Positions 511-35,175 of a stretch of 36,622 nt of DNA are shown piece after piece. The notes beneath the pieces were generated by a model. The model ran no database searches, was not told where the DNA came from, and saw only the letters and a list, made by a program, of their open reading frames with translations. Each line of letters begins with the position of its first letter. The stretch's first letter is position 1. The stretch comes from a virus (Duplodnaviria > Heunggongvirae > Uroviricota > Caudoviricetes). Location of the stretch: IMG/VR virus record IMGVR_UViG_2531839531_000013, positions 1-36,622 of that record; one strand, given 5' to 3'. A program made the translations under genes and the position numbers.

Positions 511-1284
511 TTACAACTTAAAGAGTTTCGCTTGCCCTGGATTAACAGCTTCGACGTAGTTTTTGACCCCTATTCTGTGCGGCTCATAATTGCTTGAATA
601 GAAATCAATCAGGAAGTCACTCATTTTCTGAGATGTGACTTTCATAACTCCCTTACTCAAAGTTAAATTAAACACGCTAATCTTTGACGATGGTGCCTGA
701 GTTTTACTCATGTTGGCTTGATAACCAGATTTACGCATTGCCACTAGTGCTTCGTCGTAAGCCGCTTGTAATTGGGCCAAATCGTTTGACGAGATGATCA
801 CATCATCCATAAACACACTTAGCTTGAGATCATGATGTTTGTTCAATCGGCGTAGTAAGCTACCAAAATAACTTTTATCTAAGCAGAGGGTTGCAAGTAT
901 TGGAGATTGAACAAAACCAAAAGGGAGGACATGCTTATGTGGACTATGGGACAAGTTTCTTACAGTTGAAAATGTTGAGATTTCCCGCGCTTGAGAATAG
1001 GTGAAGTAGCTCTTTAGATCACGGGTGATACGACTACGGCTCGTTGACTGAAAAAATTGTTTAATATCAACAACGGCAAAAAAATCACTTTTTAAGTGTA
1101 ATCTGGCAGCTTTAAGATGCCCACCAGTTCTTAGATGGTAAAAATAGAGTGGCGGAATCCACTTGTTTCTGACATCCTGAAGTATCTTCCCTCCGACTTT
1201 ACGTGCCTCAACGCTTGGGACATAAACCCAAACCCCGGGCTTAATCTCAAATTTATCTTCCCACCTTTGAACTTCTATTGTCAT
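511..1284 (-). CDS. Compact reverse transcriptase (257 aa), retron-like; family not assignable by eye
   Basis: RT motifs in canonical order: VPSVEARKVGGKI (motif 1-like), FFAVVDIKQFF (motif 2), LPFGFVQSPILATL (motif 4), VFMDDVII (Y/FxDD catalytic motif), NMSKT (motif 6). AT-rich relative to the phage backbone. Confidence 0.8.
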   Translation of the reverse strand: MTIEVQRWEDKFEIKPGVWVYVPSVEARKVGGKILQDVRNKWIPPLYFYHLRTGGHLKAARLHLKSDFFAVVDIKQFFQSTSRSRITRDLKSYFTYSQAREISTFSTVRNLSHSPHKHVLPFGFVQSPILATLCLDKSYFGSLLRRLNKHHDLKLSVFMDDVIISSNDLAQLQAAYDEALVAMRKSGYQANMSKTQAPSSKISVFNLTLSKGVMKVTSQKMSDFLIDFYSSNYEPHRIGVKNYVEAVNPGQAKLFKL

Positions 1285-1426
1285 GAGTTAAATTGTTGTA
1301 GTTGAAGGCCATGTTAAGAACGGCGTAAACCGCACCAACTAAGCCAACAAACGCGGTTGCGCATTTGAGCATAGCGGTGATCAGTTCAACACGCGCCTTA
1401 ACTAAGCCAAGTTCGTTTGTATCCAT
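1253..1426 (-). CDS. Small single-pass membrane protein (57 aa), overlapping the RT start
   Basis: GGAGGA Shine-Dalgarno 7 nt before the second ATG (MDTNELG...); hydrophobic segment LKCATAFVGLVGAVYAVLNMAF; stop overlaps RT start by 32 nt. Alternative start at 1441. Confidence 0.5.
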   Translation of the reverse strand: MDTNELGLVKARVELITAMLKCATAFVGLVGAVYAVLNMAFNYNNLTHDNRSSKVGR

Positions 1427-1572
1427 AACTTGTTCCTCCATAGATACCTGACGTCTCTTAGCGCAAGCGCATGGCCCTAACTAAATAAAAAATAACAACC
1501 AGTTAGCCCAGAAAGCTTAACAAGTCGGCGTCCGATTACATGGCAATCAGGTAATCGGTCCGCAGTCGCAAA

Positions 1573-1684
1573 GCGACAAACTACATATCTACGGAGTGGG
1601 GATAAATCCCCGCTAACGTCAGGCATTGTTAATTTAACCTCAACTTATAGAAAAGTATAGTTTTAAATCATGTAGTTATGTCGC
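1573..1684 (-). ncRNA. Candidate structured RNA bounded by a 14/15-bp long-range inverted repeat, between the ogr stop and the RT operon
   Basis: GCGACAAACTACAT (1573..1586) pairs with ATGTAGTTATGTCGC (1670..1684), enclosing GGGGATAAATCCCC and GTCGCAAAGCGAC hairpins. Strand and transcription are inferred only. Confidence 0.3.
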
Positions 1685-1687
1685 CAT

Positions 1688-1906
1688 TTAAATCGGCAAA
1701 CCCACCTGTTTAAATTTATGAGGATGCGGCTGAACCGGATTTGACTCTTTTGGCGTTGCAATCGAACGAACAAAAGTTTCATGGGTAACAAAAGTATGGC
1801 TGCAGTTAATGTTCTGGCACTGGTTGTAACGCTCTTTGGTCAATGAAGATACCTGAAAACTGCTGCGAGTATGGGCGGCACTTCCACACAGTGGGCAAAT
1901 CATCAT
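1688..1906 (-). CDS. ogr: Late gene transcription activator, Ogr (P2) / B (186) family zinc finger
   Basis: CPLCGSAAH...KERYNQCQNINCSHTF matches the Cys-x2-Cys...Cys-x4-Cys Ogr pattern; about 72 aa from MMICPLCG. ORF track extends the start to 1939. Confidence 0.85.
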   Translation of the reverse strand: MMICPLCGSAAHTRSSFQVSSLTKERYNQCQNINCSHTFVTHETFVRSIATPKESNPVQPHPHKFKQVGLPI

Positions 1907-1996
1907 TTTTCGAGTTCTCCCCATTTTTGCTAAATTCACAATAATGATATCGCATTATTCCATTTTTCAAACTTAAAAGTTCTCCATTGTGAAGAA

Positions 1997-8976: not shown

Positions 8977-9549
8977 TCAGGGGGATTCATTGATCTTATT
9001 TGCCGGAAATTTTCTATAAATGGTAGAAACGCCTACATCAAAAATCAGTGCAATACGCTGTCTTGATTCTCCGGCCTCGAGTAAACGCCCAATCTGTGCC
9101 CACTGTTCGGTGGTCAACTTAGGACGGCGTCCACCTACTCTGCCTTTGGCACGAGCTGCAGCCAGCCCTGCCCTGGTACGTTCAACTATCAGTTCGCGTT
9201 CCATTTCAGCCAGGGCACCCATGACATGAAAAAAGAAACGGCCCATTGGGGTACTGGTATCAATACTGTCAGTCAGGCTTCTGAAATTCACACCACGCTG
9301 GCGCAACTCTTCTATCAGCGTAACAAGATGCCGCATACTGCGCCCCAACCTGTCCAGCTTCCAGACAACCAGCGTGTCTCCTGCCGATAGTGTCCTGAGT
9401 AGTTTTTTCAGCCCCGGTCTGTCGGACTTAGTGCCACTGATTTTGTCCTCAAAAATCTGCTCACATCCCGCGCAGTTCAGTGCATTACGTTGCAAATCGG
9501 TGTTCTGGTCATTTGTTGACACGCGTACATAGCCAATAAGCATGATCAT
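8977..9549 (-). CDS. Serine recombinase, DNA invertase (Cin/Gin/Hin family)
   Basis: MLIGYVRVSTNDQNTDLQRNAL... closely resembles Cin/Gin as recalled, with C-terminal HTH. Start at 9549 or 9543. Confidence 0.9.
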   Translation of the reverse strand: MIMLIGYVRVSTNDQNTDLQRNALNCAGCEQIFEDKISGTKSDRPGLKKLLRTLSAGDTLVVWKLDRLGRSMRHLVTLIEELRQRGVNFRSLTDSIDTSTPMGRFFFHVMGALAEMERELIVERTRAGLAAARAKGRVGGRRPKLTTEQWAQIGRLLEAGESRQRIALIFDVGVSTIYRKFPANKINESP

Positions 9550-35130: not shown

Positions 35131-35175
35131 ATGTAGGAATTTCGGACGCGGGTTCAACTCCCGCCAGCTCCACCA
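35131..35175 (+). repeat. attR core: displaced original ssrA 3' end
   Basis: Identical to 358..402 and followed by the native ssrA terminator. Confidence 0.9.

Follow-up and report, generated by a model that had tools for sequence, protein, structure and literature searches.

A conserved retron-like RNA with a small protein gene and a compact reverse transcriptase gene at the end of a P2-like prophage

The locus and its conserved RNA

We analyzed a 36,622-nt stretch of DNA from a virus of the class Caudoviricetes (IMG/VR record IMGVR_UViG_2531839531_000013, referred to here as the window) that encodes a compact reverse transcriptase (RT) on its minus strand close to the left end. A small open reading frame (ORF) for a small protein (SP) overlaps the start of the RT gene, and upstream of this ORF lies a conserved structured RNA of about 200 nt on the same strand, which by prediction begins near 1624 and extends as far as the start codon at 1426. 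An inverted repeat that an earlier note on this DNA had taken as the boundary of a retron-like RNA overlaps the 5' part of the conserved RNA. Together, the RNA, the SP gene and the RT gene make up a cargo module of three parts, situated at the left-hand end of a P2-like prophage. The two genes and the strands that form the long-range helices of the RNA are as follows.

511-1284, minus strand: gene for the compact retron-like RT, 257 aa (RVT_1 match, E = 1.8e-21; active-site motif FMDD)
1253-1426, minus strand: SP gene, 57 aa from the ATG at 1426 or 62 aa from an in-frame ATG at 1441, overlapping the RT start by 32 nt
1616-1626, minus strand: a1, 5' strand of the terminal helix P1, AUGCCUGACGU, pairing with 1444-1454 (inverted repeat I2) and present in the minimum free energy (MFE) fold
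1444-1454, minus strand: a2, 3' strand of P1, ACGUCAGGUAU
1586-1596, minus strand: b1, the anti-Shine-Dalgarno strand, CUCCGUAGAUA, pairing with 1436-1446 (inverted repeat I1)
1435-1446, minus strand: b2, UAUCUAUGGAG, containing the Shine-Dalgarno (SD) sequence GGAGG (1439-1435) of the small ORF and sharing 1444-1446 with a2

A covariance model of the RNA (R1) was built from 36 upstream sequences and found the RNA in 59 of 81 sources, with a single match per locus that always lay upstream of the SP and RT genes. At least 15 of the matched loci were outside the seed alignment. The match in the window covered 1410-1632 on the minus strand and scored 69.5 bits. The RNA keeps a shared order across distant hosts. 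From the 5' end it consists of a CCNGRC strand, (G)N-UAGG, a hairpin that includes the UAGG and a pyrimidine-rich strand. The GUCAC-NNN-GUGAY hairpin and a middle part that varies (about 50-100 nt) come next, and then UUGGUU, the GCGC-loop-GCGC hairpin and UAGG. The 3' end is made up of the complement of the 5' strand, the SD-containing complement of the pyrimidine-rich strand and the start codon. At loci L053, L055, L057, L058, L063 and L065-L080, R1 found no RNA beside an RT that was mostly also accompanied by a small ORF with a related VNY(G/R) motif. Some of the R1-negative loci show GGCGAUAGC-like starts, and the RNA has probably diverged in them.

Covariation was evaluated for the terminal helix using the model alignment (57 distinct sequences). 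Within P1, 98.5% of the cells were paired and compensatory double changes occurred at 6 of 7 pairs, while a control in which the partner columns were slid reduced pairing to 29-41%. RNAalifold run on the model-derived alignment recovered P1 independently. It recovered only P1, as the middle was too variable and the enterobacterial rows were misaligned around the first hairpin (P2) and b1.

The second long-range helix pairs b1 with b2, the strand that carries the SD in the window and across loci. Because the distance between b2 and a2 varies and rows were misaligned, b1/b2 was tested using cross-locus duplex energies instead of column counts, with every b1 paired against every b2 and 10,000 permutations of the partners. 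Cognate b1/b2 duplexes had a mean energy of -13.2 kcal/mol as compared to -8.7 kcal/mol for non-cognate duplexes, and the cognate mean was reached in none of the 10,000 permutations (z = -13.6). Cognate a1/a2 duplexes behaved similarly, with a mean of -13.3 kcal/mol as compared to about -8.7 kcal/mol when permuted (0 of 10,000 permutations, z = -15), and the cross-controls a1/b2 and b1/a2 were without a cognate effect. Helix strands read by hand differed completely between loci and were nevertheless complementary, as can be seen in CUCCGUAGAU/AUCUAUGGAG, CCUCAUCA/UGAUGAGG, CCUUUGACAU/AUGUCAAAGG and GCUCCUC/GAGGAGC.

The strands are arranged along the RNA in the order a1, b1, a2, b2, and P1 and b1/b2 therefore cross. 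The linker between a2 and b2 was 0-9 nt across loci and mostly 2-4 nt. When each helix was enforced alone in nested folding, the two conformers of the window were nearly equal in energy (-69.1 vs -68.5 kcal/mol), and the two were within 3 kcal/mol of each other in 34 of 58 loci. Crossing helices that are nearly isoenergetic when enforced alone imply that the RNA folds as either a pseudoknot or a two-state switch. The linker lengths make coaxial stacking of P1 and b1/b2 in a pseudoknot seem unlikely on steric grounds, leaving a side-by-side arrangement or a switch.

The promoter and the local elements of the RNA, including three hairpins with 82-93% of cells paired, are listed below.

1631-1659, minus strand: predicted sigma-70-type promoter, -35 TATACT at 1659-1654 and -10 TAAATT at 1636-1631, with a predicted start near 1624
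1613-1615, minus strand: conserved U-A-G directly after a1, with A1614 and G1613 invariant (columns A19 and G20 of alignment A2)
1598-1614, minus strand: hairpin P2, AG-C-GGGGA / UCCCC-A-CU, 82% of cells paired and compensatory changes at 4 of 6 pairs
1565-1577, minus strand: small conserved hairpin GUCGC-UUU-GCGAC, 92.5% of cells paired, its 5' half being the end of the second arm of the inverted repeat
1487-1564, minus strand: variable middle, with two local hairpins in the window (MFE folds) and with length and sequence that differ between loci
1455-1484, minus strand: conserved 3' block, UUAGUU at 1484-1479, hairpin GCGC-UU-GCGC at 1470-1461, then UAAGAG

The predicted promoter recurred across the family. 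In most of 58 distinct upstream regions a TAnnnT hexamer ended 6-7 nt before the first paired base of a1, with no such hexamer within the scanned range in 2 of the 58, and a TTG-type hexamer lay 16-18 nt further upstream across the family. The two-hexamer promoter score averaged 7.2 as compared to 3.3 in shuffles, and the -10 was conserved among six close relatives. The start of the RNA near 1624 is a prediction from this promoter match.

The invariant A-G (A1614 and G1613) sits 2-3 nt beyond the helix. In retrons a1 is followed by a G (PMC7736814), and the position of the U-A-G matches this arrangement; by this analogy G1613 is a candidate priming (branching) guanosine. In most relatives P2 reads AUAGGC...GCCUAU and includes the conserved UAGG. 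The next hairpin is GUCAC-NNN-GUGAY in most relatives, and its fourth pair changes from A-U to G-C in 4 sequences including the window, where GUCGC/GCGAC is a compensated variant of GUCAC/GUGAY. The 3' block contains invariant or nearly invariant columns, its GCGC hairpin was 93% paired, and the UAAGAG of the window is UAGG in most relatives. The variable middle at 1487-1564 is a candidate for the template (msd-like) part of the RNA.

Near-identical direct repeats, GCGAUAGG and GCGCUAGG, were also observed in most loci just inside the terminal helix on both strands (columns ~13-21 and 204-212 of alignment A2; 1620-1611 and 1464-1455 in the window), and the 3' strand of P2 (CCUA) is able to pair with either UAGG. 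A protein-coding explanation for the conservation of the intergenic region was considered and rejected, as the recurring peptides (MRFALDKPGL..., PPLRHYVISRYS...) result from reading the conserved nucleotides of the RNA in various frames. A 49-aa ORF at 1477-1626 on the minus strand was likewise not treated as a gene and is likely an artefact of RNA conservation. A gene caller had placed a 58-aa ORF inside the RNA at locus L085 (421-597).

Reverse transcriptase, small protein and distribution

The structure of the RT was predicted using AlphaFold (AF2; pLDDT 94.8, pTM 0.89) and compared to the PDB using Foldseek. The 17 best matches were all retron RTs (Ec86, Eco7/Ec78, a type I-A retron, Ec83, Eco8 and Eco2; TMq 0.65-0.76), with the Ec86 RT at the top (7v9x, E = 1.2e-14, TMq 0.73), and G2L4, DRT9, group II and diversity-generating retroelement enzymes ranked after them. 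Retron RTs also came first when the family profile was searched against PDB sequences, with the Ec86 RT matching at E = 3.9e-12 and nearly the whole protein covered. As modeled, the RT has a complete compact retron-RT fold with a short helical thumb, and it ends after this thumb without the C-terminal helical-repeat extension of the UG/Abi enzymes. Both catalytic aspartates were invariant in the family alignment and the preceding Y was nearly invariant. At residues 157-160 (~803-814) the window reads FMDD as compared to YMDD in almost all relatives, the Y being nearly invariant in the 28-sequence alignment.

The 28 family members tested all matched PADLOC retron RT profiles, and RT_VI was the top profile for every one of them (62.7 bits for the RT of the window). 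The best E values in the family were 1.9e-24 for RT_VI, 3.7e-22 for I-B and 2.3e-21 for IX. No NCBIfam model reached its cutoff for the RT, with retron_St85_RT scoring 49.5 bits, far below its cutoff of 235. Among the UG/Abi/DRT profiles the only matches were RT_UG33 at 33 bits and Drt3a at 17.6 bits. The signature motifs of retron RTs are NAXXH and VTG (PMC7736814). The family consensus at the corresponding positions, assigned by eye from motif context, was GGHVAAAxxH and xVFNxxL (alignment A1).

The neighbors of the RT gene were compared all against all (neighboring ORFs of at least 50 aa, 81 loci) and SP was the only conserved one. In nearly every locus a small ORF either stopped at the start of the RT gene or ran into it, and it encoded a protein of mostly ~40-65 aa when counted from the start codon behind the SD. 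The N-terminus of SP is basic (MKKFNYRL...), and the protein also has a helix of hydrophobic or amphipathic character and, near the C-terminus, an invariant Asn-Tyr (for example in the motif LLNMAFNY). No match to SP was found in Pfam, PADLOC, NCBIfam or PHROGs, and from its sequence it looks like a short hydrophobic toxin. No third conserved gene, whether for a helix-turn-helix (HTH) protein or any other, was found near the RT in the 81 loci, and none appeared in the gene tables of L081-L085. At two loci, L062 (~1348-2148) and L040, SP reads in frame into the N-terminus of the RT, reflecting either a natural fusion or a frameshift or assembly error; at L062 the scan found no intact RT ORF. 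A relative with 45% identity, P0036 from Klebsiella pneumoniae (302 aa), is very common in that species, with at least 1000 contigs. The annotated N-terminal extension of P0036 is SP sequence, so that SP and RT are merged in the annotation.

The RT family (~255 aa) comprised 72 protein clusters by single-sequence search and 1226 by profile search at E <= 1e-8. The best 120 of the 1226 clusters were all ~250-310 aa and carried generic names only. Among species-representative genomes, 145 relatives were confirmed by scanning, with 80 loci retained. These came mainly from Gamma- and Betaproteobacteria, with some from Alphaproteobacteria and a few from other phyla. Among complete E. coli genomes the locus was present in 39 of 5426. 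Throughout Gamma- and Betaproteobacteria, and at a small number of loci assigned to other phyla, the RNA, SP and RT occur as a set.

The inverted repeat and the prophage setting

The inverted repeat of the earlier note was found where it had been placed.

1573-1684, minus strand: inverted repeat with arms 1684-1670 and 1586-1573, present in the window, lineage-specific and not a helix of the conserved RNA

Its arms on the plus strand are GCGACAAACTACAT at 1573-1586 and ATGTAGTTATGTCGC at 1670-1684, and on the RT strand GCGACAUAACUACAU (1684-1670), followed directly by G1669, and AUGUAGUUUGUCGC (1586-1573). They form 6 + 8 = 14 Watson-Crick pairs with one bulged T/U and enclose a spacer of 83 nt. 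There is no U-run after the repeat, in agreement with the earlier statement that it is not an obvious intrinsic terminator. The 112-nt stretch had a folding energy of -33.8 kcal/mol (z = -4.6, 200 shuffles). Among 300 dinucleotide shuffles of 1442-1700, 2 produced a stem with 14 or more pairs and one irregularity, and the repeat is therefore beyond chance in the sequence of the window. Much of the low folding energy is supplied by the local conserved hairpin at 1611-1598, which is part of the larger RNA. The MFE fold of the 259-nt context (1442-1700) omitted the repeat. In this fold another long-range helix closed the structure, the GUCGC of the downstream arm paired locally with GCGAC (1577-1573 with 1569-1565), and the GGCGA of the upstream arm paired with UUGCC further upstream.

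The repeat was absent in five relatives with RTs 66-83% identical to that of the window (L081 from Lelliottia, L085, L043 from Klebsiella michiganensis, L082 from Pectobacterium and L084 from Buttiauxella). These relatives match the window almost base for base from ~75 nt upstream of CCUGACGU to the small ORF. Their sequence at the downstream arm is (A)GTGGAGTTTGTCGC or TTGCAATTTGTCGC, without a complement upstream, and the sequence aligned to the upstream arm is unrelated. Copies bearing the repeat occurred in most of the 39 E. coli matches and in 13 Klebsiella prophage records, and all of these copies share at least 99% identity. The upstream arm precedes the -35 box of the family-conserved promoter; lying before the predicted start, it would be promoter-proximal DNA, transcribed only by read-through from the late-control gene ogr. 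The repeat is lineage-specific and spans the promoter region and the RNA body without a conserved role.

The earlier note had likened the repeat arms to a1/a2 of a retron and G1669 to the branching guanosine. Instead, 1626-1616 pairs with 1454-1444 in the conserved terminal helix, and A1614 and G1613 make up the invariant A-G. The note had also named absence of the repeat from otherwise conserved RT loci as an outcome that would speak against its proposal, and this is what was seen in the five relatives. The general idea of a structured retron-like RNA as the likely template or partner of the RT was supported, given an RNA found with the RT in 59 of 81 sources, a covarying terminal helix and an RT that is retron-like in profile and fold, while the role of the repeat as drawn did not. 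What the earlier reader noticed is genuinely present in the sequence, and the kind of element was guessed correctly, but the helix and the G were misassigned. That account lacked the small ORF lying between RNA and RT, as well as the second helix, which sequesters the ribosome-binding site (RBS) of this ORF.

The neighboring gene on the upstream side of the module is the following.

1688-1939, minus strand: ogr, late-control gene (Ogr_Delta, E = 6.7e-22)

The product of ogr is 83 aa in the window (1688-1939) as compared to 71 aa in L081 (2327-2542) and L085 (126-341). A T-run follows ogr in L081 and L085, while the extended ogr of the window stops 4 nt before the repeat with no terminator predicted between them. 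That the longer ogr adjoins the repeat points to a joint formed by deletion or recombination, from which the repeat may have arisen.

A complete tmRNA gene lies at 40-402 on the plus strand at the left edge of the window, and the 3'-terminal 26 nt of this gene have an exact second copy at 35150-35175. Because the last 26 bases recur, the ~34.7 kb between the tmRNA gene and the copy are recognized from the sequence as a P2-like prophage inserted in ssrA, with the two sites marking both of its predicted attachment sites. Downstream of the tmRNA gene, at 411-438, there is a strong hairpin resembling a terminator. On the minus strand, the order toward the left end of the prophage is tail genes, ogr, a gap of 246 nt, the small ORF and the RT; the 246 nt between ogr and the small ORF are without a credible gene and hold the inverted repeat. 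A cmscan search of 1-2500 against Rfam 15 with E values up to 10 gave only tmRNA-related matches apart from weak or chance ones, namely Plastid-ycf2 (E = 2), which fell within the tmRNA gene, and, on the other strand, RsmY at chance level (11.7 bits, E = 9.8).

The module was found at the ends of P2-like prophages in the window, L081 and L085. At L082 it adjoins a primase gene with Toprim and DUF927 domains. L084 has the same host neighbors as L081 and L085 (an Asp-Al_Ex transporter, ybjM and a glutaredoxin) and no phage genes upstream of the module, and this locus could be what is left of a prophage. The mobile surroundings of the module are consistent with a role in defense. The paper on P2/P4 hotspots (PMC9122126) contains no mention of ogr or ssrA. 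Elsewhere in the prophage, a 190-aa ORF at 8977-9549 on the minus strand lies downstream of the tail sheath and tube genes and has an N-terminus that, judged by eye from the translation, resembles a serine recombinase or DNA invertase (Hin/Gin-like). This ORF may mark an invertible tail-fiber segment.

Proposed mechanism, rival explanations and related systems

Retrons Ec67 and Ec73 sit in phage or satellite cargo positions, like the module described here. As in canonical retrons (Ec86/Eco1, 13 types; PMC7736814), the RT gene is preceded on its own strand by a non-coding RNA (ncRNA), an a1/a2 helix is followed by a conserved G, and the RT fold matches. The module differs from them in the RT motifs AAxxH and VFN, in that no profile of the 13 types scores strongly, and in having as its effector a peptide of ~55 aa of which the translation, rather than the activity, is apparently controlled.

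The module is closest in logic to Type VI retrons, which consist of an ncRNA, an SP, an HTH protein and an RT (10.1101/2025.10.22.683967, 10.64898/2026.04.27.721009). In Retron-Vpa2 the ncRNA and the SP coding sequence form one 'hybrid RNA', and in Type VI the RBS of SP is sequestered in the hybrid RNA and SP translation is derepressed by multicopy single-stranded DNA (msDNA) that is made by the RT and induced by phage recombination proteins (10.1101/2025.10.22.683967). The HTH protein of Retron-Vpa2 represses reverse transcription and prevents toxicity. Type VI RTs form a monophyletic clade (clade 3), and the Type VI SP clusters include cl2075, cl2760, cl3272 and cl3897. A Cro/C1-type HTH gene lies beside the RT in ~78% of Type VI entries (10.64898/2026.04.27.721009). 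As in Retron-Vpa2, Retron-Eco12 and Retron-Sen3, a structured RNA, a small hydrophobic protein and a small downstream RT are encoded on the same strand, the RBS of SP is sequestered in the RNA (in Retron-Sen3 in the basal stem) and terminal inverted repeats are present. In contrast to Type VI, the module has no HTH gene between SP and RT or nearby, its RT is shorter (~255 aa) and matches RT_VI weakly, its SP matches no PADLOC model, and its RNA is ~200 nt as compared to ~470 nt for the Vpa2 hybrid RNA. The strand that pairs with the SD also differs in position, lying here between the first hairpin and the presumed template and crossing the terminal helix.

Taken together, we consider it fairly probable that the locus is an unclassified two-gene, retron-like module in which an RNA 5' of SP and a compact RT gates the translation of SP. 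DNA synthesis, a branching G and a role in defense would be expected by analogy to retrons. By analogy especially to Type VI retrons such as Retron-Vpa2, the RT would bind the RNA and prime from the 2'-OH of G1613, with a1/a2 setting G1613 beside the end of the template just 5' of a2. Single-stranded DNA would be copied from the region 5' of a2 toward the 5' end of the RNA, through the GCGC hairpin and the variable region. SP would be a membrane-active toxin that is silent while b1/b2 pairs. Because b1 is on the template side of a2, its copying would expose the SD, and complementary DNA (cDNA) synthesis through b1 would in this way free the RBS of SP. Release could occur by RNase H removing b1, or by the DNA copy of b1, which has the sequence of b2, competing with b2, possibly in trans. 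SP would then be translated, the infected cell arrested and the phage infection aborted.

A number of points weigh against this proposal. The retron profiles score the RT at only 60-85 bits, RT_VI is barely ahead of types I-B, IX and II-A, and the signature motifs are altered, with AAxxH for NAxxH and (V/A)FN for VTG. Kinship among the sequences inflates the permutation statistics, and R1 misses the RNA in ~20 mostly alphaproteobacterial loci that still carry SP and RT. The HTH protein of Type VI is absent from the loci, and copying of b1 by the RT is a guess. We hold more tentatively, as a possible and still rather doubtful extension, that the module represents a minimal two-gene retron type (ncRNA-SP-RT, no HTH, RT of ~255 aa), widespread in Proteobacteria, in which the anti-SD strand is part of the RT template, the two helices cross and the start or completion of cDNA synthesis switches on a membrane toxin without a protein antitoxin.

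The leaders of hok, tisB and zorO are examples of type I toxin-antitoxin mRNA leaders, and the RNA described here could be a cis-acting translational repressor leader of this kind and nothing more, not reverse transcribed and accompanied by an RT that acts elsewhere or non-catalytically. The likeness lies in a short hydrophobic, toxin-like peptide and an SD buried in a long-range helix of its own 5' leader, a helix that covaries, and Type VI retrons were themselves first reported without detectable msDNA at rest (10.1101/2025.10.22.683967). However, no antisense RNA gene is evident here, the RNA is found strictly with this RT family, and the conserved structure exceeds what an anti-SD would need (P1, P2, the GUCAC hairpin, UUGGUU, the GCGC hairpin and two UAGG motifs). 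In addition, placing an invariant G after a terminal helix corresponds to how retrons prime, and the catalytic motif of the RT is conserved, which leaves a leader-only function unlikely. A function of the inverted repeat in read-through from ogr, where it could serve as a processing site, stabilizer or insulator hairpin, or could trap a1, P2 and b1 in its loop so that late-operon RNA does not fire the module, is somewhat less likely again. The repeat is improbable by chance, and in the window it adjoins an extended ogr with no intervening terminator predicted while relatives have a T-run. It is nevertheless without a U-run that would make it an intrinsic terminator, it is thermodynamically outcompeted in longer context, and the E. 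coli and Klebsiella copies are >99% identical, leaving no sequence variation by which its conservation could be judged.

Much less weight can be given to the proposal that the repeat arms 1684-1670 and 1586-1573 are themselves a1/a2 with G1669 as the branching guanosine. The repeat is real, rare in shuffles and has a G after its first arm, but it is lost in the five close relatives even though their remaining RNA is near-identical, its upstream arm stands before the conserved promoter and it is not in the 259-nt MFE fold. Another helix, followed by an invariant A-G, covaries across the 57 distinct sequences, and the drawing based on the repeat leaves only 83 nt for msr and msd; we regard this proposal as very improbable. 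The slightest chance is given to a DRT2-like rolling-circle RT that works between the two UAGG motifs held by P1 and makes concatemeric DNA with an open-ended ORF. The ends of the DRT2 template reportedly carry repeated triplets, and the direct repeats GCGAUAGG / GCGCUAGG just inside P1 on both strands are reminiscent of them. As with the DRT2 ncRNA/Neo system, a structured ncRNA lies upstream of the RT and a helix joins the putative ends of the template, with short repeats at both ends. The unit from UAG to UAG was not preferentially a multiple of three in length (remainders of 0, 1 and 2 in 12, 14 and 19 loci, respectively), and most concatemers had stops in all six frames. On these grounds of unit length and the lack of stop-free frames, a DRT2-like endless ORF was rejected. 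The RT is furthermore of another clade, far nearer to retron RTs than to DRT2 (9c0i ranked 47th, TMq 0.54), and a separate small ORF is present.

A search of the literature for a 'Type XIV' retron found none, and none of PADLOC 2.0, NCBIfam and Rfam 15 recognizes the locus as a defense system or an RNA family. We class the element, conserved but so far unannotated, as a variant of the retron kind, with a retron-like RNA that probably also gates the translation of a putative small toxin. The family is common. Gene callers sometimes predict a false ORF within the RNA. Because the RT is compact and its RNA partner short, the pair may be of interest to users of retrons for DNA production in cells. 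If the model holds, this would be, to our knowledge, the simplest retron-like immune module, with one RNA, one peptide and one small RT, and it would provide a directly testable link between reverse transcription and translation through two crossing, covarying helices.

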